DNA of 12,188 bases. It comes from Candidatus Micrarchaeota archaeon (GTDB taxonomy: Archaea > Micrarchaeota > Micrarchaeia > Norongarragalinales > Norongarragalinaceae). The stretch spans positions 1 to 12,188 of the forward strand of contig JBBIMI010000023.1 in NCBI GenBank assembly GCA_037444485.1, read 5' to 3'. Positions 2,693 through 12,089 of the stretch are shown one piece after another. Made by a program: the position numbers and the translations under genes. Positions within the stretch are counted from its first letter, which is position 1; each line of letters opens with the position of its first letter. The notes beneath the pieces are model-generated. The model saw only the letters and a program-made list of their open reading frames with translations. It made no database searches and was not told where the DNA came from.

Positions 2693-3268
2693 TTAATCCG
2701 TGCTTGCTACGCGCTTTGCTCGCCATTGTTTTTTAGTACCCTTGTTTTTTAATCTCTTTACGGGCACTCCGCCGTAAAACGAGTTTGGTGGAACGTCTTT
2801 GTTTACAAGACTCATCGAACTCACAACCGCGTTGTCTCCGACGACCACTCCCGGCAGAATAATGCAGTTTGCTCCAATCAACACATTCTTCCCGATTTTG
2901 ACGGGGCCTTTCCTCCACTCCTTTTGCAGGAATTCATGCGTCAAAAGCGTCGTGTTGTAGCCAATCGTAGTATTCTCGCCTATCTCGATGAGTTCCGGAA
3001 AGAAAAAGTCGAGCAAAACACCTAACGCGAGCGAAGCTCCGCGCCCGATGCGCGCTCCAAGCGCGCGGTAGAAAAAGTTTTTCATGTGCAGTGAAGGCGC
3101 GAAGCGCATTGCATAAACGACGATGAAGTTGACGAGCAAGCGCAGCGGATTGCGCGTCTTATGCCAGTCCTGCAACGCGTTTCCCTCACGCGTTGGAAAA
3201 CACTGCAAGCGTTTTACGCGATCCACTTTCCACCAACTTTGCGAACACACTCGTTTTTTTGTTGCCAT
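2693..3268 (-). CDS. Hexapeptide-repeat (LbH) O-acetyltransferase, YvoF-like
   Basis: LbH repeats IEIGENTTIGYNTTLLTHE, VKIGKNVLIGANCIILPGVVVGDNAVV and VNKDVPPNSFYGGVP. The N-terminal NFIVVYAMRFAPSLHMKNFFYR resembles Bacillus YvoF as I recall it. The true start may lie a few codons downstream. Confidence 0.85.
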   Translation of the reverse strand: MATKKRVCSQSWWKVDRVKRLQCFPTREGNALQDWHKTRNPLRLLVNFIVVYAMRFAPSLHMKNFFYRALGARIGRGASLALGVLLDFFFPELIEIGENTTIGYNTTLLTHEFLQKEWRKGPVKIGKNVLIGANCIILPGVVVGDNAVVSSMSLVNKDVPPNSFYGGVPVKRLKNKGTKKQWRAKRVASTD

Positions 3269-3277
3269 TAAACTTTT

Positions 3278-3634
3278 TTATTTTATTTTTGCGCCGTTGC
3301 GTAAGAGAAACTCGCGCAGTTCAGCTTCCTGCGTCAAGCCAACTTTTCGTTCGCCTTTACCGTTTCCTGCTATGAATGTTGGGGTGCCTTCAACGCCGTA
3401 CTGCGAATAGTAATTCGGGTTTGCTTTCACATCCATCACGCGAACGCGAAAGCCTTCTTCCGCGAGCTTGTTCAAAATAGGTTCTTGTTGTTGACAGTAA
3501 TGACAGTCAACGCGCCAAAAATAGTATACTGGCGACGCGTCGTCAGAGTACGCTTTTTTCCCTGACGAGAAGAAAGCGCCTGCCACGATTGCTATAATGA
3601 TGAAACCAATCAACAACAACTGCCAATTTTTCAT
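3278..3634 (-). CDS. Membrane-anchored thioredoxin-family protein
   Basis: N-terminal hydrophobic anchor, YFWRVDCHYC active site, cis-Pro loop YGVEGTPTF. RBS GAGGTGGTG precedes the ATG. Confidence 0.9.
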   Translation of the reverse strand: MKNWQLLLIGFIIIAIVAGAFFSSGKKAYSDDASPVYYFWRVDCHYCQQQEPILNKLAEEGFRVRVMDVKANPNYYSQYGVEGTPTFIAGNGKGERKVGLTQEAELREFLLRNGAKIK

Positions 3635-3806
3635 GGCACCACCTCGATTGCGTCAACCATCTCGACTACATTAACTAAATTAACTAAAACAAAACTTTTT
3701 TTAAACAAAAAATTTTTAAAACAAAAAATTTTTTAATAAATGCCTTCCAACATGCCTGCTTAATAAATTTTTTTCATTCCGCCAACTTCGCTTTACTTCG
3801 CTAGCT

Positions 3807-4733
3807 TTACTCACTCACTGGCAAACAGATTTGCGGTTCTTGCTGTTCCCCAGCCGAGCTCGCGTTACTTTTTAATGCTGCTTCCAACCGCGCCAGTGAA
3901 GGCGGACCAACTATGCTCGCGTTGTTCACGAAGAAAGTTGGTGTGCCGTAAACGCCTGAAGCCAGCCCTTCGCGAATGCTTTCCTCTACGACGCCCTCAT
4001 ATTTTCGCGAGTCGAGGCACGCGTCGAAACGCGCGGAGTCCAAACCAACGTCGCGAGCAAGTCGCTTTAACACAGCTGGCTCTAAGTGTTCTTCAGCAAA
4101 CAACGCGTTTTTGTACTCCCAAAACTTGTCTTGCTCGCGCGCGCACTCGGCTGCAAGCGCGCTTTCCATGCTCCAAGCATGTTTTGTAATCGGAAAGTAT
4201 TTGAACGCGAACCGCACGCTGTCGCCGTGTTTGGCGAGAAACTCGCGCACGACGGGTTCAGCTTGCCGCGTGTAAGGGCACGTGAAGCAACCGAATTCGA
4301 TTACCGTCGCATTCGCATCAAGCGGACCGAGCACGGGACTGTCTCCGACTAGCGGTGCGGAGAGCGGCAAGCGTTTTTCACTGAAAACGTCGAGGAGGCA
4401 AAGTCCAGTCGCCTGCGGGCCGTTACAGTTTCCAAACGCAAAAAAATTGTATAACGAAAAAAGCGAGTAACCTAAACTCGCGAAAAACAAAATCGTGAAA
4501 ACCCACGACAACGCTTCAAAATGAGTGTTCACGAAACGCGCGGCACGCGGCACGCGCAGCATGGTTTTCGCCACGATTTTCGCTTTCAGCCGCTCTTCAA
4601 GACTTGACTCGCATGGGCGGAGAGTCACGCGGCGCGCGACGCAGGAAAATGCTTCCCGCGCGAGCGCGCGGTAGCGCGCGCTGAACAAGCCGAGAAACGC
4701 GAAGGCGACGAGTGCGACGATGCATAAAACCAT
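3807..4733 (-). CDS. DsbA/BdbD-like thioredoxin-fold protein fused to a Cys-containing N-terminal membrane domain
   Basis: C-terminal domain: PVLGPLDANATVIEFGCFTCPYT, FAFKYFPI, AALAAECAREQDKFWEY, GVYGTPTFFVN. The N-terminal ~115 aa have two hydrophobic segments and five Cys. Confidence 0.85.
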   Translation of the reverse strand: MVLCIVALVAFAFLGLFSARYRALAREAFSCVARRVTLRPCESSLEERLKAKIVAKTMLRVPRAARFVNTHFEALSWVFTILFFASLGYSLFSLYNFFAFGNCNGPQATGLCLLDVFSEKRLPLSAPLVGDSPVLGPLDANATVIEFGCFTCPYTRQAEPVVREFLAKHGDSVRFAFKYFPITKHAWSMESALAAECAREQDKFWEYKNALFAEEHLEPAVLKRLARDVGLDSARFDACLDSRKYEGVVEESIREGLASGVYGTPTFFVNNASIVGPPSLARLEAALKSNASSAGEQQEPQICLPVSE

Positions 4734-4757
4734 TTCGTTTCACTTAATTTGATTGTT

Positions 4758-4817
4758 TCGATTCGCTTTAACTGTTCGCTTTCGTTTTCCTCGATTCGCT
4801 TTAACTGTTCGCTTTCG
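4758..4817. repeat. 27-bp direct repeat, two copies
   Basis: TCGATTCGCTTTAACTGTTCGCTTTCG at 4758-4784 and 4791-4817, followed by degenerate TTTCGC units. Confidence 0.9.
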
Positions 4818-4867
4818 CTTTTCGCTTTAACGTTTCGCCTTAATTCGTTTCGTGTTTGTTTTTGCGA

Positions 4868-6070
4868 TTATTTTTTCGCGAGTTTGCTTATTTTTTCAAG
4901 CGCTTCTCGGAACGCGTTGATTTCTTCGAGCGTATTGTAAGCGTGAAGCGAAACGCGCACAGTGCCGTCGACGCCTAGCGCGCGCGTTAACGGGAGACAA
5001 CAGTGGTGGCCGCTGCGCACGCAGATTTTCTTGAGTTCGTCAAGCATTACCGCGGTTTCGTGGTGTCCTAAGCCGTGGATGTTGAACGCGAATAAAGGCG
5101 AGCTTTTGTCGTGTTCATCGCGCGGCCCGTACCACTCTACGCCTAACGCTTCAAAATCGCGGAAAACTTTGAACAACTCGCGCGTTAAAAGCGCGTCGTG
5201 TTCCTCGATTGCGCGCAAGCCGATTCTGTTCAAGAAATCTAGTGCTGCGCCGAACGCAATCCAGCCCGCAATGTTGGGAGTGCCAGCTTCAAAGCGTTCG
5301 CGGTTAGAGAGAAAAGTGAAATCCCGCGCGCTCGCGTCACTAATCGTTCCACCACCAACAAAAACCGGGTTTAGTTTTACGTCTTCCCGGTGGTACAACA
5401 CGCCTGTTCCAGTGGGCGCGAAGCACTTGTGTCCGCTGAACGCCATGAAATCCACGCCGAGTTCCTTCAAGTTCACGGGATGGTGACCAACATATTGCGC
5501 TGCGTCAAGCAGCGCGAGCGCGCCTGCGTCGTGCGCCAGCCTCGCGATTTCTTTTATTGGCACGCGTGTGCCGAGAACGTTGCTGCACGCTGTGAATGCG
5601 ATTAACTTGGTTTTCTTGGTTAAAAGCGGTTCAAAGTCGCTGGCGGAAAATAATCCCTCGCGATTAGCTTGAACTACTTTCAGCTTGACGCCGCGCTCGC
5701 GTTGAAGGCGCACGAGCGGCAGCAAACAACTATGGTGTTCGACGCTTGTAGTTACGACTTCGTCGCCTTCGTGCCACTCGAGACCCATTACAGCAGCATT
5801 CAACGCTTCAGTTGCGTTGCGCACGTTCACAAACTCGTTTTCGCGCGCGTTAAAAAACTTTGCGAGCTTCGCGTAGACAACCTCGTATTCTTTTGAAGCG
5901 CGCAGCGTCAAGCGGTGCGCGCCCCTGTGAATGTTTGCGCGGTACTCGCGGTAAAACTCGAGTTCCTTGCGCAGCACGCTTTCTGGGGTGAGCGAGGAAG
6001 CCGCATTATCGAAATAAATTATTCCCGTCTTGAGGATTGAAAATTCTTCCCGAATCTTTTTCACGTTCAT
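4868..6070 (-). CDS. sufS: Cysteine desulfurase, group II (SufS/CsdA type), PLP-dependent aminotransferase class V
   Basis: YFDNAAS, ANIHRG, EHHS, DAAQ, FSGHK (PLP Lys), RFEAGTPN and the group-II catalytic motif RSGHHC. Confidence 0.9.
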   Translation of the reverse strand: MNVKKIREEFSILKTGIIYFDNAASSLTPESVLRKELEFYREYRANIHRGAHRLTLRASKEYEVVYAKLAKFFNARENEFVNVRNATEALNAAVMGLEWHEGDEVVTTSVEHHSCLLPLVRLQRERGVKLKVVQANREGLFSASDFEPLLTKKTKLIAFTACSNVLGTRVPIKEIARLAHDAGALALLDAAQYVGHHPVNLKELGVDFMAFSGHKCFAPTGTGVLYHREDVKLNPVFVGGGTISDASARDFTFLSNRERFEAGTPNIAGWIAFGAALDFLNRIGLRAIEEHDALLTRELFKVFRDFEALGVEWYGPRDEHDKSSPLFAFNIHGLGHHETAVMLDELKKICVRSGHHCCLPLTRALGVDGTVRVSLHAYNTLEEINAFREALEKISKLAKK

Positions 6071-6343
6071 TCCAGAACACTCTTCAAATCTTTATTCTAA
6101 AACAAATCTTTATTCCAAAACTCTTAACGCTTCAAAACATTATTCTGGATTCACTGAATTCAAAAACTTTTTTTCTAAAAAAAATTTAAAAATTTTTTTG
6201 AAAATAGAATTTTTTGAAAATCTTTTTTAAAATTTGGGTTTTTTGAATTTTTGAAAATTGAAATTTTTTTGAAAATCTTTTGCGTTTTCGCGCTTTTACG
6301 TTTTTCGCGCCTTCGGGCTTCGCTGTCTTCACGCTTCGCGTCT

Positions 6344-6685
6344 TCACGCCTTCATTAGCTTGAACACGGCGGGCTTTAATTTCTTTGCGAATGGTTTGCT
6401 CGCGCGCAGAGTCAAATGAATTACTCGCCCGCGTTTTGCTGAAGTAACGAGCGCGAGTTCAACGCGCGCATTCTGGTCGCTCACAACGCTTACTTCACTG
6501 AATGAAATCCCTAATTGCGTGAACAAGTTTTTTAACTCGTTCAAGTAAGGGCCACAGTGGCCGCAGTACTCGTTCTTGTAAATCGTGGCGGAAAACGAGA
6601 GCCCTCGAGTTAAGGAAGCAAAAGAAAAAAGGAAAAAAACGAAGGCGAGGAAAGCAAAATTTTTTTTTGGAAACATTTCAACCAT
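6344..6685 (-). CDS. Exported CGHC thioredoxin/glutaredoxin-like protein, apparently truncated or chimeric
   Basis: Signal or anchor sequence, then TIYKNEYCGHC, a helix and a strand. No cis-Pro motif follows, and the last ~35 aa are basic and not thioredoxin-like. Confidence 0.6.
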   Translation of the reverse strand: MVEMFPKKNFAFLAFVFFLFSFASLTRGLSFSATIYKNEYCGHCGPYLNELKNLFTQLGISFSEVSVVSDQNARVELALVTSAKRGRVIHLTLRASKPFAKKLKPAVFKLMKA

Positions 6686-6693
6686 TATTGTTT

Positions 6694-8136
6694 TTACACG
6701 CTTTGATTGCTTTGGTTTGCGCTTTGATTCAAGTGACTTGATTGGCTTTGATTCGATTGACTTGATTGGTTCGACTGCGCGGGCGTAGGCGTTGGCGTCG
6801 GGAGCGCGCTTGGTGTTGCCGTTGCAGTTGGCAAACCGATTACTTCACCTGTTTCAAGGTTTTTGTAAACCGCGTTTTGCAACGCGTTCATGTTGCGGAA
6901 CACGAACCACCCGTCACTCTCGATGCTGCCAACCTGCTCCCAAACCTGCTTTAAAGCCCCGTAAACGCTTGCTTCCGGCGACAACAACACTGTTGGAACG
7001 AGCGTTACGTTGTAGGCTTTAGTCAAGTTCTTCCCGCGAGTCGAATTCACTTCAACCTCAGTCTCGTTGAAAACAAACACGCCCATCCGCTCTAAAACCT
7101 GCTTGTGTAGCTTGACGTCGTAACACGCGCTGCAAGTGGAGTCCTTCAAGTAAACCAATTCCACCAAACCCTCGATCTTGCCGGTAGTCAAGTTTACGAA
7201 AGGCGGCGTGGTGGCGCGCAGCACGAGCGAACCGTCCGGCTCGACGCTTCCAACGCGAGGCCATAACGCCGCGACCTGCGGGTATTCGTTCAAGTCGCTC
7301 GACGCGATCAGCGAGGGAACAGTCGAAATGTTGTACGCCGCGACTAGCTTCTTGCCTTCGTCGCTCGAATAATCGACGACGCGCTCGCTGGACACCGCGA
7401 CTCCCAAGCCAACCGGCGGTTTTCCTGCAAGTTGGCTTACGAGCAGCGACACGTTGAAGCACTGCGTGCAGTTTGACGCGATTAAAGAAACGAATTCCAC
7501 CCGTCCTACGACGCGTTTTTTATCTACGTCGTAATAAGGCGGCTGCTGCGAAACAAGGACGAAAGTGCCGTCACTAGCTTGCGAAGCGATTGGCGAAAGA
7601 AAAGCGCTTGCTTCAGAACGCCGTTTTTCTTCGCTTGAAATCAAGAGTGTAGGAAGTTTTTTCACACCATACTTTGAAACAAGTGCGCTCGCTTCAGCGT
7701 CAGAGTAATCGAGAACGCGAACGCTTAAAACCGCGCCCTTCGCTCTTAACTCTTGCAGCACAGTGTCGACGTCGAAACAATCACTGCAGTCCGGAGCGCG
7801 AATGCGCGTGACGCTCAAAGAAAGCGGTGCAGCAGGCGCCGGGCTCGCGCCAGCTCTGCTGGCGCCTCCACTTATTCCGCTTAGAATGAAAACGTTTGCA
7901 GTGATTACGGCGATTAAGATGACTACTAACCCAATTATAATTCCATAGTTTTGTGAAACGCGTTTCGACAACTGCGACTGCGGTGAGTGCGGCTGCTGCA
8001 AGTGTTGCTGCGACTGTGGCGGCTGCTGCAGCTGTAACTTGCTTTTCTCGTGTTCTGCGTGCGTCTCGCCGTGCGCTGCGTGAGCTGCGTGCTCGTGTTG
8101 TTCACGCGTTTCGTGTTTTTTCTCTTCTTCAGTCAA
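6694..8136 (-). CDS. Membrane-anchored surface protein with three tandem CxxC thioredoxin-like repeats and a His-rich N-terminus
   Basis: His/Glu-rich then Gln-rich N-terminus; one TM (IIIGLVVILIAVITANVFILSGI); CSDCFDV, CTQCFNV and CSACYDV, each followed by YxVxxLPT/VPS/VPT and DGxxVxx; Pro/Thr and NQS-rich tail. TTG start with GGAG/GGTG upstream. Confidence 0.85.
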   Translation of the reverse strand: MTEEEKKHETREQHEHAAHAAHGETHAEHEKSKLQLQQPPQSQQHLQQPHSPQSQLSKRVSQNYGIIIGLVVILIAVITANVFILSGISGGASRAGASPAPAAPLSLSVTRIRAPDCSDCFDVDTVLQELRAKGAVLSVRVLDYSDAEASALVSKYGVKKLPTLLISSEEKRRSEASAFLSPIASQASDGTFVLVSQQPPYYDVDKKRVVGRVEFVSLIASNCTQCFNVSLLVSQLAGKPPVGLGVAVSSERVVDYSSDEGKKLVAAYNISTVPSLIASSDLNEYPQVAALWPRVGSVEPDGSLVLRATTPPFVNLTTGKIEGLVELVYLKDSTCSACYDVKLHKQVLERMGVFVFNETEVEVNSTRGKNLTKAYNVTLVPTVLLSPEASVYGALKQVWEQVGSIESDGWFVFRNMNALQNAVYKNLETGEVIGLPTATATPSALPTPTPTPAQSNQSSQSNQSQSSHLNQSANQSNQSV

Positions 8137-8442
8137 TTATGCACCAACTCCTGAAAACTTTTTTGAAAAGCCTTTCACAGCAACGCGTTGTTTCGCGTAC
8201 TGCCAGTTGAAGTTAGAGGTAACCCCTTTAATCTGTTTTTGAAACCATTCACTTCAAGAAAAAAGCTTTTTTACGAGTTTTTACGAACTTTATAGTAAAA
8301 TTATAGTGAAATGTTAGTGTATAGTAAAATGGTTTGCGGTAGAAAAAGCTTTTGAAAGCGCGTGCGCGGCGCAGGCGCGGCGCTTTCTCTCAGCTTTCTA
8401 AAAGTTTTTCTAGTTAGTTTTTCTGGTTTTTTTCGTTTTGTT

Positions 8443-8706
8443 TTAGCAACCGCCAACCATTGAAGGCAAGTTAGGCGATTGCGTGGGGTTCAAGTTGCTC
8501 GGCAGATTTGCTTGACCGCCGCTCGCGCCGCTTGCTTGCGCGCCGCTCGCTTGCGCGCCGCTGCTTGCGGGCGCTTGCGTTTTAGCTTGCGTGTATTGCG
8601 TCAATCCAAGCAGTTGAATTGACTGCACTGCGGCTACCAGCACTAGGATTGCCAGCAAGCCCACCAACAACAATTGCTTGTCCAAACTTTTTTTCACCTC
8701 AACCAT
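8443..8706 (-). CDS. Small membrane-anchored protein with a low-complexity linker and C-terminal PSMVGGC
   Basis: Basic N-terminus, one TM (LLLVGLLAILVLVAAV), SGAQA repeats, and a single Cys as the last residue. It has the same C-terminus as the upstream gene. Confidence 0.85.
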   Translation of the reverse strand: MVEVKKSLDKQLLLVGLLAILVLVAAVQSIQLLGLTQYTQAKTQAPASSGAQASGAQASGASGGQANLPSNLNPTQSPNLPSMVGGC

Positions 8707-8745
8707 TTTTTTAAAATTAAATAAAAAATGTTTTTAAAAATGTTT

Positions 8746-9495
8746 TTAGCAACCGCCAACCATTGACGGCGCATTAATCCCGCTACCGCTTTTCGAAACA
8801 GGCGGCTTGAAGCCGTTCGCAGTAATCTTGATTACTGTCGGCGTTTCGCCTGCTGACGCGAACGCGACCGCTTTTTCTATACTATTTTTCGGAAAGAACA
8901 AAATCTTCCATTTTCCGAGTTCTTCAAGCATTTGTTCTTCAGTGAATTCGTTCGAGTGCTTGTCAACCAAGTAAGCCAAAAGCCCGCGCATTGCAGCGCT
9001 GTGCGCGCAACCGCAAGCCGCCCTGCCCTGCGAGTCGATTATGGAAGGCGCTCCGCAGCAATACTCGCAAGAAATTTTCAACCCTACGCGCACATATTTT
9101 TGCAGGTTCTCGCCTGAAAGTTGAATCCCTCCGTCGAACTGCGCTAGTTTTTTCATGCTGTTCACTGGGTCTTCAAAACTGACTCCGAGTTCTGGCCCGT
9201 AAACGCGTGGAACGCCGCGAGGCACGAGCTGCGTTATGAGCGTGTTGACGTCGACAGCACCGCCAGCGCCTCCGCTTCCAGCGGCGAGCGTTGTCGTAGT
9301 AGCACTCGAAGCAGCTATGCTGGACAAGCTTAGTATCATGAATTGGTTGAAAGCAATTACTCCAATCGCGAGCGCTATAAGCGCGTAAACCGCTTTAGGA
9401 ATGCTTCCAGATTTCGATTCCACTGACTTTGATTCCACTGATTCAGTTTTTTCTTTTCCTTTTCCTTCGAACGCCAAACCACCCACCTCACTCAT
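8746..9495 (-). CDS. Membrane-anchored Cys-cluster protein (CEYCC...CGCAH) with C-terminal PSMVGGC
   Basis: One TM (AVYALIALAIGVIAFNQFMILSL), a Ser/Thr/Gly linker, a globular domain with CEYCC-x12-CGCAH, and the terminal PSMVGGC. Confidence 0.85.
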   Translation of the reverse strand: MSEVGGLAFEGKGKEKTESVESKSVESKSGSIPKAVYALIALAIGVIAFNQFMILSLSSIAASSATTTTLAAGSGGAGGAVDVNTLITQLVPRGVPRVYGPELGVSFEDPVNSMKKLAQFDGGIQLSGENLQKYVRVGLKISCEYCCGAPSIIDSQGRAACGCAHSAAMRGLLAYLVDKHSNEFTEEQMLEELGKWKILFFPKNSIEKAVAFASAGETPTVIKITANGFKPPVSKSGSGINAPSMVGGC

Positions 9496-9670
9496 TCTCG
9501 TACATCCAATTTAATGTATCCACTTAACACATCCACCGCGCATCCACCAAAAAATATTATTACTAAAAAATATTATTGCAAATCCTACATCCAGTAAAAA
9601 ATATTATTGCAAACCCCCACAAAAAAATTATAAACCCCACAAAAAAATTACAAACCCACGAAAAGAATAT

Positions 9671-9756
9671 TATTACAAGTTTTGTTTTTATTACAAGTTT
9701 TATTATTACAAGTTTTATTATTACAAGTTTGTTATTACAAGTTTTGTAAAACTTGT
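9671..9756. promoter_or_regulatory. Candidate operator array for the BlaI-family repressor
   Basis: TATTACAAGTTT at 9671, 9689, 9704, 9719 and 9733. The last copy lies in two overlapping inverted repeats: TTACAA-GTT-TTGTAA (9735-9749) and ACAAGTTTT-GT-AAAACTTGT (9737-9756). BlaI/MecI/CopY proteins bind TACA/TGTA half-sites. Confidence 0.6.
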
Positions 9757-9780
9757 TGAAGATAGTTGTTGCAGAAGCCG

Positions 9781-9817
9781 TATTTAAAGCTTTGCATTTT
9801 TTGTAAAGGTTTAAAAA
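9781..9817. promoter_or_regulatory. Back-to-back archaeal-type TATA/BRE-like elements of a divergent promoter
   Basis: Minus strand reads AAAGC-TTTAAATA (box 9788-9781), pointing to the MVGGC genes. Plus strand reads AAAGG-TTTAAAAA (box 9810-9817), pointing to the repressor. The region is AT-rich, so chance matches are possible. Confidence 0.5.
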
Positions 9818-9842
9818 CCCGGATTACCAAGTTAATAACAAG

Positions 9843-9898
9843 CAACAAACACAACAAGCAAGCCAAACAACAAACACAACAAGCAAGCCAAACAACAA
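9843..9898. repeat. Perfect 25-bp tandem repeat (about 2.2 copies), T-free on the + strand
   Basis: CAACAAACACAACAAGCAAGCCAAA at 9843-9867 and 9868-9892, then a partial CAACAA. Confidence 0.95.
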
Positions 9899-9972
9899 CG
9901 TGTCGTAAATAAACGGGTTCTTGTTAAGGTGTTGTTATAGAGTGTTGTTAGAGTGTTAAAGCGTGAAAAAAA

Positions 9973-10425
9973 ATGGTTGAAGTTAACCGGCTTAGGTTCG
10001 AGAAAAAGGGTTTAACGACGCTATTCAGTCCTTTAGAAGCAAGCGTGCTTGAAGTGCTCTGGCAACCAGAAAAAGGCGATAACGCGAGCACGAGCAGCAC
10101 AAACGGCGCGGACGCAGGAAAGCAAGTGAAAGGCATGCGTGTCCGCGAGATTCACGAAGCGCTTGCTGCGAAGAAAAAAGTGGCTTTAACGAGCGTTGCC
10201 GTGATTCTAGACAGGCTTTACGCGAAGGGCATAGTTGCGCGTAAGGTAGAGTACGGCAAGGGTGGGCCTCATTACTTGTATTTTCCGAAAACTTCTAAGA
10301 ACGAGCTAGAATACTCTGTTCTCGACAACGCTGTTAAAAACTTGATTAAAGTGTTCGGGCCAATTGCAGTAAACTATTTTAACGAAAAATTCGGCGATTT
10401 AAGGAAAGGGAAAAACAATGCTTGA
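9973..10425 (+). CDS. BlaI/MecI/CopY-family winged-helix transcriptional repressor
   Basis: FSPLEASVLEVLW, VREIHEAL, recognition helix ALTSVAVILDRLYAKGIVAR, wing ending YLYFP, and a C-terminal dimerisation region (VKNLIKVFGPIAVNYF). No cysteines. Confidence 0.9.
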   Translation: MVEVNRLRFEKKGLTTLFSPLEASVLEVLWQPEKGDNASTSSTNGADAGKQVKGMRVREIHEALAAKKKVALTSVAVILDRLYAKGIVARKVEYGKGGPHYLYFPKTSKNELEYSVLDNAVKNLIKVFGPIAVNYFNEKFGDLRKGKNNA

Positions 10426-11227
10426 AATGAGTGACGTGTTGCTGAACAGCTTCCAAGTATTTCTAGCGAATCCATTAAACTTGGCGATTACGCTCTCTTC
10501 AGCAGCCTTCGCAACCGCTTTCTTTTACGCGAGCGCTAAAAGCAATTGCAATTCGCTGAAGAAAAAAATTGCGTTCGCGTACGCCGGCCTCGCGTTCGCG
10601 TTCCTGCCGCTCGAACTAATCGCGTTTTCCGCGACTTGCTACCAAATGGGTTTCGACTGCGCAGTCATCCTATACAAGATGTTCGCGTTATTCACTCCCT
10701 TAGCAATCGCAACCGCCTTCGCTGCAAGCGCCATTCTAATGCCGGCATTAATAGCGTGGACGAGCAAGGGCCGCGAAATACGGGAAGGCTGGATCCACGA
10801 ATTCGTGAAAAAACAAGGCGAAAAGACAGGCGTAAAGAACGCGCGCGTTTACTGTCTTGATTCACAGAAGCCAACCGCGTTTTCGTTTAAGAGCTTGGGT
10901 TTTCAGCCGAGCGTGTTTCTGTCAATCGGCTTGCTTGACGTGTTGACGAAGAACGAAGTCAAAGCAGTTTTGCTTCACGAACTCGCGCACTTAAAGAAAG
11001 GAGACTCTGTTTTAAAGGCTTCAACGCAAGCGTTGAAGTTGTTTCTGCCGTTCAACGCGGCGAAAACGTTCTCGCACTCGTTCTTGCGGGGCTTGAACGC
11101 TGAAGAAAAAGCGGCGGACGAATTCGCTTGCAGCGTGCAAGGCACGAACAAGTTTTTAAAGAACGCGAAAGCGAAACTCGCGGAATTCGACCAGGGTTCG
11201 ACGCTTGCAGCTAAAAACCTTATATAA
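10418..11227 (+). CDS. BlaR1-like membrane zinc metallopeptidase (M56/M48), lacking a penicillin-binding sensor domain
   Basis: Three N-terminal hydrophobic segments; PTAFSF, VFLSIGLLDVLTKNEVKAVLLHELAH (HExxH) and EEKAADEFA (third ligand, ExxAD). Overlaps the repressor gene by 8 nt, suggesting translational coupling. Confidence 0.9.
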   Translation: MLEMSDVLLNSFQVFLANPLNLAITLSSAAFATAFFYASAKSNCNSLKKKIAFAYAGLAFAFLPLELIAFSATCYQMGFDCAVILYKMFALFTPLAIATAFAASAILMPALIAWTSKGREIREGWIHEFVKKQGEKTGVKNARVYCLDSQKPTAFSFKSLGFQPSVFLSIGLLDVLTKNEVKAVLLHELAHLKKGDSVLKASTQALKLFLPFNAAKTFSHSFLRGLNAEEKAADEFACSVQGTNKFLKNAKAKLAEFDQGSTLAAKNLI

Positions 11228-11447
11228 AACTAAAAAAAAACTCGAAACCTGAAAACCTAAAAACTTGAAACCTAAACTAAAAAAACTCGATTCCCGCGAA
11301 ACCGGGAAACTAGTTTCAAAAAAACAATTCGCTTTAAAATCGTGTTTTTAAACCCTTCCAACGTTTTCCCCTCAAGCAAATTAAAGACAACTGCGATAAA
11401 GCCAAACAAAACTGTTTTTAAAAACAAACGCGCCAAAACAAAGCAAT

Positions 11448-12089
11448 ATGACTAAAGCGCTTTGCGTGAGCGACGCGCACGCAGACGAGCAAGCCCTCGC
11501 GTTCCTAAAAAAATTTTTGCGGGAAGAAAAGCCAGAACTCGTGCTAGCAGCAGGCGACTTGACGCAAAACGGGCCCGTCGACTACGCTGAAGACTTTCTC
11601 GATGCGATTCGCGACGCTGGCGCGGATTTCTTCACGATTCACGGCAACTGCGACCCGCTGCGCGTCAAAATGCTTCTCGACGCGAAAGGCAACTCGATTC
11701 ACGCGCGCCGCGTCGAATGGCGTGGATTCGCGTTCGCTGGCTTCGGCGGCTCGCCGCCAACTCCGCACGGAACGCTCATCGAGTACTCGGAAGCAGACAT
11801 CTACAAGCAACTCTCGCCCCTCGTCGACAACAAAACAATCGTCGTCACGCATTTTCCGCCGCACGGAATCCTTGACGAAACGCGTGACCTCAAACACGCG
11901 GGCAGCTTGAGCCTCCGCAAAATAATTGAAGAAAAAAAGCCGCGCGCCGTCGTGTGCGCGCACATTCACGAACGTGAAGGCGAACGGCAAGCGTTGACGA
12001 CGAAAGTAGTCAAGCTCGCGCCCCTCGAACACGGCAAAGCAGTCGCGCTAGAACTCGAAACGCTGGCGGCGCGTTTTTTAAAGATTTAA
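11448..12089 (+). CDS. Calcineurin-like metallophosphoesterase (Icc-related)
   Basis: Motifs VSDAH, AGDLT, HGNCD, VTHFPP and CAHIHE. Confidence 0.92.
   Translation: MTKALCVSDAHADEQALAFLKKFLREEKPELVLAAGDLTQNGPVDYAEDFLDAIRDAGADFFTIHGNCDPLRVKMLLDAKGNSIHARRVEWRGFAFAGFGGSPPTPHGTLIEYSEADIYKQLSPLVDNKTIVVTHFPPHGILDETRDLKHAGSLSLRKIIEEKKPRAVVCAHIHEREGERQALTTKVVKLAPLEHGKAVALELETLAARFLKI

Follow-up and report, generated by a model that had tools for sequence, protein, structure and literature searches.

A candidate PetR/PetP-like switch in a micrarchaeal contig: a repressor of the BlaI family with a sensor-less M48 membrane peptidase, facing genes for exported Cys-tail proteins

The locus and its genes

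The subject of this account is contig JBBIMI010000023.1 (C23) of Candidatus Micrarchaeota archaeon (assembly GCA_037444485.1), on which a gene pair for a putative BlaI-family repressor and a membrane zinc peptidase diverges from a run of genes for Cys-rich proteins, the first two of which, CysGGC249 and GGC87, end in Gly-Gly-Cys. The stretch analyzed, called the window below, is 12,188 nucleotides (nt) long and comprises all of contig C23; the genome consists of 0.96 Mb in 58 contigs and is 95% complete. An earlier note on this DNA had placed nine genes here, with Cys motifs and membrane anchors at particular positions, and all were found where it had them (Table 1). Seven are minus-strand open reading frames (ORFs), running from 9495 down to 3278 in the ORF list, and six of their products have an N-terminal hydrophobic segment (19-residue Kyte-Doolittle window, at least 1.6) and are anchored or exported, the exception being a SufS. 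The spacers between these seven genes, counted from CysGGC249 on, are 39, 306, 8, 273, 134, and 172 nt long. The note had also taken the host for an archaeon, and relatives of the same family or order with a homologous locus are indeed labelled Micrarchaeota or Norongarragalinales.

Table 1. Coordinates of genes and sequence features in the window (aa, amino acids; E, expectation value; TM, transmembrane).
Feature	Position	Strand	Description
BlaI/MecI/CopY-family winged-helix repressor	9973..10425	+	150 aa; PF03965 E 1e-11
Sensor-less M48 (M56-like) membrane Zn-peptidase	10418..11227	+	PF01435 48.3 bits, cut-off 20.3
Predicted operator 1, TTACAAGTTTTGTAA	9735-9749		Exact TTACA-N5-TGTAA; on the CysGGC249 side of the divergent promoter core
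Predicted operator 2, TTGCATTTTTTGTAA	9792-9806		One mismatch; beside TATA-like boxes
Putative TATA-like boxes	~9781-9789 and ~9810-9817		Flanked by the two operators
Tandem array of TTATTACAAGTTTTG	9670-9747		5.1 copies of a 15-nt unit; a half-site per unit; three weak sites, two mismatches each
CysGGC249, signal-anchored exported protein	8746..9495	-	249 aa; CEYCC 143-147, CGCAH 161-165, ends PSMVGGC
GGC87, TM anchor, low-complexity linker, and LPxMVGGC tail	8443..8706	-	87 aa; sole Cys is the last residue
TriCxxC480, membrane-anchored, three thioredoxin-like CxxC modules	6694..8136	-	480 aa; Thioredoxin 5.9e-7, Thioredoxin_3 1.4e-6
Grx113, truncated CopG/DUF411-like exported CGHC protein	6344..6685	-	113 aa; N-terminal half only
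SufS-like class-V cysteine desulfurase, cytoplasmic	4868..6070	-	PF00266 (Aminotran_5) E 1e-112, 377 bits
DsbA308, membrane-anchored, DsbA-like	3807..4733	-	CFTC 149/152; Thioredoxin_4 2.7e-24, DSBA 6.4e-18
Trx118, signal-anchored thioredoxin	3278..3634	-	CHYC; Thioredoxin 7.9e-8
Tandem-repeat spacers	3665-3736, 4758-4843, 6085-6353, 8268-8439, 9606-9957, 11227-11290

The repressor and the membrane peptidase

The repressor passes the gathering cut-off of PF03965 (Penicillinase_R; 45.6 bits against 22.6), and its best sequence match in the PDB is 2g9w (E 0.0014). It is conserved in 12 aligned relatives, with an invariant wing (G95, G97, G98, Y101, and Y103) and the C-terminal pattern FG..A..YF.E; a low-complexity insert of about 20 residues does not occur in the relatives. 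The protein contains no Cys at all, which makes metal sensing in the manner of CopY impossible, so that sensing must be delegated to the peptidase.

The peptidase ORF shares 8 nt with that of the repressor, to which it is translationally coupled. The earlier note had described the two as a coupled BlaI/BlaR1-like pair; the peptidase itself falls in family M48, with an M56 score below the cut-off, and reaches just 15.2 bits against the blaR1_generic model (NF000326), where 400 are required. In an AlphaFold2 model (mean predicted local distance difference test score, pLDDT, 81.7), helices at 19-41, 47-77, and 81-115 precede a catalytic domain with the motif HELAH at 187-191 and E230. No hydrophobic segment follows residue 115, the chain stops behind the protease domain, at residue 269, and there is neither a C-terminal penicillin-binding sensor domain nor a fourth TM helix. 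Across an alignment of 14 sequences, residues C74, C81, H187, E188, H191, and E230 do not vary; the Cys74/Cys81 pair, in the loop between TM helices 2 and 3 (TM2-TM3), is kept in 16 of 16 sequences. Because Lys/Arg-rich segments follow helices 1 and 3, the positive-inside rule would place the turn at 78-80, which C74 and C81 flank, on the outer side of the membrane and HELAH on the inner; the Cys loop thus probably faces outward and the catalytic domain the cytoplasm. The fold of the model matches ZMPSTE24/Ste24, an HtpX fragment, and Staphylococcus aureus BlaR1 (8exq_A, Foldseek E 3.5e-3, prob 0.99) about equally. A word-based homologue search with the peptidase returned the query as its sole match.

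A complex of the two proteins, predicted with both entered as alignments, had interface scores (ipSAE) of 0.61, 0.61, and 0.62, against 0.00 for the best of three controls; the mark used for this score is reached by 116 of 157 solved complexes and by 2 of 215 mismatched pairs. At least 93% of contacts were common to the runs, and the partner had a pLDDT of at least 75. In the model, residues of the peptidase's cytoplasmic domain, 119-126, 146-152, 170-175, and 253-264 contact repressor residues 56-58, 71-83, and 90-101, which include the recognition helix and wing. The prediction supports binding between repressor and peptidase, and if the model is right, binding to the peptidase and binding to DNA would be mutually exclusive because the contacts are on the DNA-binding face.

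Conservation of the linkage

Homologues of CysGGC249 are found in 21 of 61 related genomes, and 20 loci were mapped with the window's proteins. In 16 of the 20, a BlaI gene with an M48 gene diverges from the CysGGC homologue; L029 is cut off at CysGGC by the end of its contig, and the distant homologues in L041-L043 are without the pair. A wider scan, with one genome per species, yielded 310 loci, and counts out of 80 given here and below refer to the best 80 of these, searched with hidden Markov models (HMMs) built from the first set. These 80 are labelled DPANN or unclassified archaeon, with a few Methanosarcinales, Thaumarchaeota, and Gammaproteobacteria. The regulator adjoining CysGGC is BlaI/M48 in 27 of the 80, and 11, mostly short contigs, have neither this nor the membrane winged helix-turn-helix (wHTH) regulator considered below. 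BlaI and M48 genes occur together, overlapping or nearly adjacent, in 25 of the 27 BlaI loci, the two without M48 being at contig ends.

The linkage was also approached from the peptidase side, with a profile run against 301 genomes of the phylum (the tally includes two unpublished genomes, G087 and G234, on which no result rests). In most of these genomes the profile matched just part of a housekeeping HtpX-like M48. There were 21 loci at E ≤1e-38, including a partial one at a contig end (L147). In 16 of the 21 the divergent neighbor is CysGGC or TriCxxC, the gene preceding CysGGC in such loci, and one is at a contig end. From both sides, the repressor and peptidase are linked to genes for MVGGC proteins. 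Among weaker matches (E 1e-20 to 1e-30), the facing gene is for a redoxin or an ABC permease, and some have lost the second loop Cys. In L142 (G105:C11), the BlaI-M48 pair has no CysGGC link and faces a small exported Met-rich protein with MMxxM runs (2678-2968); the same type of switch may control other putative copper binders of this kind.

A GGC87 homologue follows CysGGC in 61 of the 80 loci. The other families, in order of frequency, are the CopG-like family to which Grx113 belongs (“Grx”; 38), CopA (35), c7 (33), DUF5676 (30), a CcdA-like protein and c9 (28 each), Cupredoxin_1 (24), DUF2933 (23), TriCxxC, in variable positions (19), DsbA (13), and SufS (8). Clustering of ORFs with Pfam annotation brought out further conserved neighbors in relatives that are absent from the window, the named ones being DsbD_TM/CcdA-like proteins, a CopA-type P-type ATPase with YHS and HMA domains, Cupredoxin_1, DUF5676, DUF2933, and the membrane wHTH (DUF7343/MarR_2); unnamed families include c7, with the motif ACCAHH, c9 (NVQHLSHHP...C), and c17. 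Members of c17 (e.g., L032:12881-13879) have the related motif PCC...DCNHG and end in SGC, and they could be paralogous to the CysGGC domain. The conserved core is CysGGC, GGC87, in part TriCxxC, the CopG-like and CcdA-like genes, c7, and c9. Among the further partners that the earlier note had suggested looking for, CopA, the CcdA-like gene, and TriCxxC do recur, while SufS hardly does.

Operators and the divergent promoter region

Between BlaI and the divergent gene there is a conserved palindrome, TTACA-N5-TGTAA, often with AAAGC/GCTTT flanks and usually in two copies 52-60 nt apart in relatives; in the window the spacing is 57 nt. The arrangement TTGCA..TGTAAAGCTTTAAATA of the second copy is also found in L037-L040. 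A relaxed form of the pattern is present in 12 of 16 BlaI-divergent gene regions, and in the other four (L025, L026, L030, and L031) degenerate versions can be seen by eye. These palindromes are predicted to be operators of the repressor that mark divergent promoters. A “palindrome array” had been noted here earlier; two true palindromes are present, at the positions given in Table 1, while the array as such is a set of tandem 15-nt copies. It is not special, because short tandem repeats (period 8-33 nt) occupy nearly all intergenic spacers of contig C23. What sets the two palindromes apart is that the matching motif is conserved in relatives.

The 80 loci, 946 kb in all, contain 34 exact copies of TTACA-N5-TGTAA, where 20 shuffles gave 1.95 on average, and 24 of the 34 lie between BlaI and CysGGC. 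Four are found 5-11 nt before the c7 gene of clusters that continue to c9, DUF2933, DUF5676, cupredoxin, and CopA, and one is 27 nt before SufS (L083). Three precede a CysGGC gene without a nearby BlaI (L101 and L115 at the edge of a contig, L061 with BlaI 1,390 nt off), and one is between TriCxxC and CysGGC (L050). Of the last two, one (L074) precedes a wHTH gene and the other (L098) is within CopA. In the window's own genome the relaxed pattern occurs at eight places, with the conserved flanks only at C23:9735, C23:9792, and C44:2178. The last of these (C44:2178-2192, L045) stands in front of an ORF for a 184-aa Cys/His membrane protein ending GGKCH and a c9 homologue (1266-1577). The 184-aa ORF was considered as a c7 homologue and rejected, with an HMM score of about 0 bits. 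Contig C44 also carries a TRASH/YHS-like zinc-finger ORF and a small HTH ORF.

Within the window, no site with two or fewer mismatches precedes TriCxxC480, SufS (6071-6343), DsbA308, or Trx118. Since these four genes have no such site before them, direct support for control by the repressor extends to CysGGC249-GGC87 and to the repressor's own operon, and, as judged from the placement of these predicted sites, co-regulation is supported only for CysGGC249-GGC87 within the run. The seven genes do not, then, form one conserved unit, the low frequency of SufS among the 80 loci pointing the same way.

The Cys-tail proteins

The six Cys residues of CysGGC249 are at 143, 146, 147, 161, 163, and 249. 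Neither this protein nor GGC87 matches a Pfam or NCBIfam family. Invariant in the CysGGC family are all six Cys residues along with H165, P243, G247, and G248. Its profile finds 341 representatives at E ≤1e-3 among 1.84 billion proteins (259 at ≤1e-10); among the best 150 of these, CxxCC is present in 150, CxCxH in 149, and a GGC end, followed by at most two residues, in 112. In all of 13 relatives the GGC87 tail is of the same kind (LPxMVGGC). The Cys-tail proteins make up a family not yet described, and a literature search found no description of the system of repressor, peptidase, and Cys-tail proteins. A sortase/LPXTG reading of LPxMVGGC was rejected since no hydrophobic tail follows the motif, and CaaX-type processing of the tail by the M48 domain was rejected since the tail would be outside the cell and the catalytic domain inside.

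The AlphaFold2 model of CysGGC249 (pLDDT 82) is confident for residues 80-230 and for the last nine (block means 63 for the linker and 84 for the tail). Foldseek gave no PDB match at E ≤0.001, with 2kw0, a structure of the CcmH/NrfF kind, at rank 2, and in the ESM Atlas only unnamed clusters were found (score 0.83-0.87). With a wide aligner, the top match was the periplasmic domain of CcmH (2hl7_A, Z 5.9, root-mean-square deviation 2.7, 75 of 82 residues, the next Z being 4.0), a result within the range of chance helical matches, and PF03918 (CcmH/NrfF) was not matched at E ≤0.01. The CcmH-like, three-helix fold is a lead only. If it holds, CysGGC would, like CcmH/NrfF, have a CxxC in the loop after its first helix, and both would stand downstream of a reductant channel of the CcdA/DsbD type; CysGGC249 differs in its additional Cys residues (CxxCC and CxCxH) and MVGGC tail, and no cytochrome c context was seen.

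Proposed switch and its alternatives

The repressor and peptidase quite probably form a signal-dependent switch for the divergent operon. As to the signal and the outcome, the account that seems on balance somewhat probable is a proteolytic switch of the PetR/PetP type that responds to copper or thiophilic stress and drives an envelope relay for copper and thiols. A repressor dimer on both operators would keep both promoters shut. Cys74 and Cys81, in the only outward-facing loop of the peptidase, would bind Cu(I) or another thiophilic metal, or become oxidized, and this signal would activate the cytoplasmic HELAH domain, which would capture the repressor by its DNA-binding face; removal of the repressor by cleavage, sequestration, or both would derepress the operon. 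The relay, as pieced together from relatives, would comprise a CcdA-like membrane reductant channel, CopG-like and thioredoxin-like proteins, the CcmH-like Cys cluster protein CysGGC, and tethered C-terminal Cys arms (GGC87), which could bind or pass on Cu(I) and keep surface thiols reduced, alongside the CopA efflux pump.

The earlier note put the system forward as a candidate undescribed one, but the switch has a precedent. In the cyanobacterium Synechocystis sp. PCC 6803, PetR/PetP is already a copper-responsive pair of a BlaI-like repressor and an M48/M56 protease without the BlaR sensor domain, the petP gene overlapping petR in one unit (10.1101/2020.07.31.226407). The same work and a commentary describe PetP as needed for the copper-dependent loss of PetR, which it degrades in the presence of copper (10.1101/2020.07.31.226407, PMC7896320); M53 and M58, conserved in its TM2-TM3 loop, are proposed as copper ligands (10.1101/2020.07.31.226407). 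Compared with PetR/PetP, the pair described here is similar in its types of repressor and peptidase, in the overlap of the genes, in the cytoplasmic HExxH, in having soft-ligand residues at an analogous position in a short TM2-TM3 loop, and in an inverted-repeat operator with a 5-nt core spacing (GAC-N5-GTC there, TTACA-N5-TGTAA here). It differs in being archaeal (DPANN), in having two Cys rather than two Met as loop ligands, in lacking a fourth TM helix after the protease domain, and in its regulon, an operon of envelope Cys-protein and copper genes instead of petE/petJ. The likeness is drawn from the published description of PetP, and a copper response in the archaeon would be by analogy. 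The switch is thus new in its archaeal, Cys-loop form and of a kind already known from PetRP.

Other members of the repressor family are less close. BlaI/BlaR1 and MecI/MecR1 of Staphylococcus share the PF03965 repressor, a membrane gluzincin of the same fold class (8exq_A), and a divergent, self-regulated promoter with paired palindromic operators. The archaeal system has no penicillin-binding sensor domain and no beta-lactamase or penicillin-binding protein as a target, and a role as beta-lactam sensor was rejected for want of that domain. The operators of BlaI and CopY are TACA-N2-TGTA, so the half-site spacing here (N5) is different. CopY has the PF03965 winged helix, TACA/TGTA-type half-sites, and a copper-gene context in common with the archaeal repressor, which lacks its C-terminal CxCxxxxCxC metal site and scores 17.8 bits against TIGR02698 (CopY), where the cut-off is 121.95; with no Cys in the repressor, a direct metal sensor of the CopY type was rejected.

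Handling of a soft metal, copper, is the best-supported theme of these loci. The earlier note had proposed a surface pathway for disulfides, persulfides, or soft metals; the neighbors speak best for copper within that range, CopA being far commoner than SufS (35 against 8 loci), and the persulfide version is weak. In 35 of 39 cases, the two TM helices of the membrane wHTH regulator found beside CysGGC in other loci are joined by a loop with a Cys pair, often in the form C...CP.H; of the four exceptions, three have Met/His-rich loops and one is truncated. This membrane-tethered protein may be a one-component envelope metal sensor. A broader and distinctly more tentative proposal is that the DPANN may have an envelope relay of their own, without a published counterpart, in which the CxxCC/CxCxH family and tethered mini-proteins ending in LPxMVGGC would carry Cu(I) or reducing power at the cell surface on a terminal Cys swinging arm, under two unrelated but convergent sensors, each with a pair of soft ligands in a very small outward loop (the wHTH, and BlaI with the Cys-loop M48).

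Several observations weigh against a copper-responsive proteolytic switch of this design. The copper role is read from neighboring genes only, and the DUF411, CcmH, and M56 similarities are all under curated or comfortable thresholds, the peptidase reaching 28.2 bits against PF05569 (M56), where 31 are required. The complex model, which is a prediction only, puts the DNA-binding face of the repressor on the peptidase and no identified scissile bond. Another regulator, the membrane wHTH, adjoins CysGGC in over half of the loci (42 of 80), and 4 of the 21 strong BlaI-M48 pairs (L138, L139, L140, and L142) are beside unrelated genes; given these and the neighbors of some weaker pairs, the linkage is strong but not exclusive. 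The operators are 240 and 167 nt from the two start codons, distances explained by the insertion of tandem repeats, with a promoter core that itself matches relatives. In the window's own genome, CopA is on a separate 3-kb contig (C47) with no operator in the 303 nt of upstream sequence available, and no CcdA-like gene was found by tblastn or HMM search, which in a genome 95% complete does not prove its absence. The match of Grx113 is limited to about residues 24-79 of its homologues, the His-rich C-terminal half being gone. With this gene truncated and the CcdA-like gene not found, the effector pathway here may be partly non-functional. No RNA data set is listed that covers 8400-11300, which are covered by one DNA set, from a subsurface metagenome that is probably the source sample. 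On the effector side the genome has CysGGC249, GGC87, TriCxxC480, and the truncated CopG-like gene; this side is eroded, and the switch itself is intact.

The alternative that survives best, though it seems unlikely, keeps the same architecture and takes the signal to be thiol-oxidative stress or the redox state of the envelope, with Cys74 and Cys81 forming a disulfide and a CcdA-fed relay supplying reducing power to surface proteins. In its favor, paired Cys residues are a textbook form of redox switch, thioredoxin-fold CxxC proteins abound in the operon, which also includes a CcdA/DsbD_TM-like gene, the best fold match of CysGGC is CcmH, a thiol oxidoreductase, and one of the weaker BlaI-M48 pairs (L150) faces a redoxin gene with an exact operator. 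The neighbors, however, are specifically metal genes (CopA, cupredoxin-like, DUF2933, DUF5676, and CopG-like), and PetP, the nearest studied analogue, responds to copper (10.1101/2020.07.31.226407). The main reason for preferring a metal signal over a purely redox one is that the Met/His-rich loops of three of the alternative wHTH regulators suit Cu(I) and not disulfide chemistry.

It is much less probable that the repressor acts alone, or that sensing is cytoplasmic, the M48 protein being a quality-control protease of the HtpX type that is co-transcribed by chance. Its M48 domain does score best against HtpX models, its only PDB sequence match is an HtpX fragment, it stays under the M56 cut-off, and an HtpX-like M48 is encoded separately in most genomes of the phylum. 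Yet the two genes keep together in nearly all the BlaI loci, there is a separate M48 paralogue in the same genome, on contig C15, the predicted complex passes its controls, and a generic protease would have no use for an invariant pair of Cys in its outer loop. A switch that responds to another thiophilic metal (Hg, Ag, Cd, or Zn) instead of copper has a similarly poor chance. Membrane neighbors with vicinal Cys (c7 with ACCAHH, DUF2933 with CC, and c23 with CPVC) recall MerT, MerC, and MerF, and sites made of Cys only bind Hg(II) well. Against this, P-type ATPases with YHS and HMA domains are typical of Cu pumps, the cupredoxin-like and CopG-like proteins are copper markers, and no identified neighbor matched a mercury-resistance family, with no search specific for merA or merP.

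SoxY has a C-terminal Cys carrier arm, Gly-Gly-Cys on an exported protein. The flexible Gly-Gly-Cys ends of the exported proteins here likewise suggest a swinging-arm carrier, with the differences that the Cys is the very last residue, that GGC87 has no folded domain, and that the identified neighbors are copper and thiol-redox genes. That these LPxMVGGC tails are SoxY-like sulfur carriers, with SufS supplying persulfide to an envelope sulfur relay, is the least probable alternative: the tail does resemble the SoxY arm, SufS belongs to the window's run, and L083 has the operator before SufS, but SufS is cytoplasmic, with no export signal, has no operator before it in the window, and occurs in few loci, and the neighbors identified are metal and thiol-redox genes (sulfur-oxidation genes and SoxZ-type partners were outside the family models and not looked for).

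If the copper switch proposed here is real, protease-mediated copper switching, shown so far only for PetRP in a cyanobacterium, would extend to archaea, and Cys-Cys in place of Met-Met ligands would be a natural experiment on how a sensor-less protease of the BlaR1 type reads metals. The genes controlled would include a rare family (341 of 1.84 billion representative clusters) of no known function, whose C-terminal Cys tail is invariant. For DPANN cells, contact with hosts at the cell surface is a necessity, so regulated protection or loading of surface thiols and metals would bear on survival in metal-bearing groundwater. With so compact an operator, pair of switch proteins, and set of small effectors, the system lends itself to heterologous reporter work.

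Other genes of the run and state of the contig

The CxxC motifs of TriCxxC480 are at 117/120, 223/226, and 335/338. Grx113 itself has no DUF411 match and is followed by a low-complexity spacer of 273 nt. Its full-length homologues are exported proteins of ~190-205 aa with a C-terminal TM segment. Their profile has CopG (6wis_A) as its top PDB match (E 0.0023), the Cys motif and a segment GVP..M..H...DGK..EGHVP being aligned, and individually they reach E 0.002-0.009 (16-18 bits, under the cut-off of 27) against DUF411 (PF04214). As with CopG/DUF411, these are exported thioredoxin-fold proteins in copper clusters; they differ in having CGHC rather than CxCC, and the window's copy differs further by its truncation.

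SufS, DsbA308, and Trx118 are loosely linked and without an operator. The SufS-like protein scores 383.7 bits against TIGR01979, under the cut-off of 475.1, and its gene is loosely associated with the system; a SufS-DsbA gene pair is found in the window, L031, L039, and L044, in varying positions relative to the switch. Residues 1-125 of DsbA308 make up a part with two TM segments and two additional Cys pairs (C31/C41 and C103/C112), which could act as a fused redox partner like DsbB or VKOR, for either re-oxidation or reduction. A homologue of Trx118 is present in one of the 20 relatives' loci (L038).

Nine nt after Trx118, on the same strand, is a gene for a hexapeptide-repeat acetyltransferase (2693-3268), making the co-oriented run eight genes long; against its best NCBIfam match, heptaprenylglyceryl phosphate O-acetyltransferase, the product scores 185 bits, where 300 are required. 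The parts of a HAD-type hydrolase lie in two ORFs that overlap, the N-terminal hydrophobic segments in 1100-1519 and the C-terminal HAD motifs in 1458-1682; a frameshift, an assembly error, or gene decay could account for the split at 1100-1682. Low-complexity inserts occur in several proteins of contig C23, and microsatellite-like expansion seems to come easily to this genome. The final 41 residues of a metallophosphoesterase at the other end of the window (11448-12089) are repeated at 97.6% identity at the start of contig C4 (C4:2-124), and contigs C23 and C4 probably abut.

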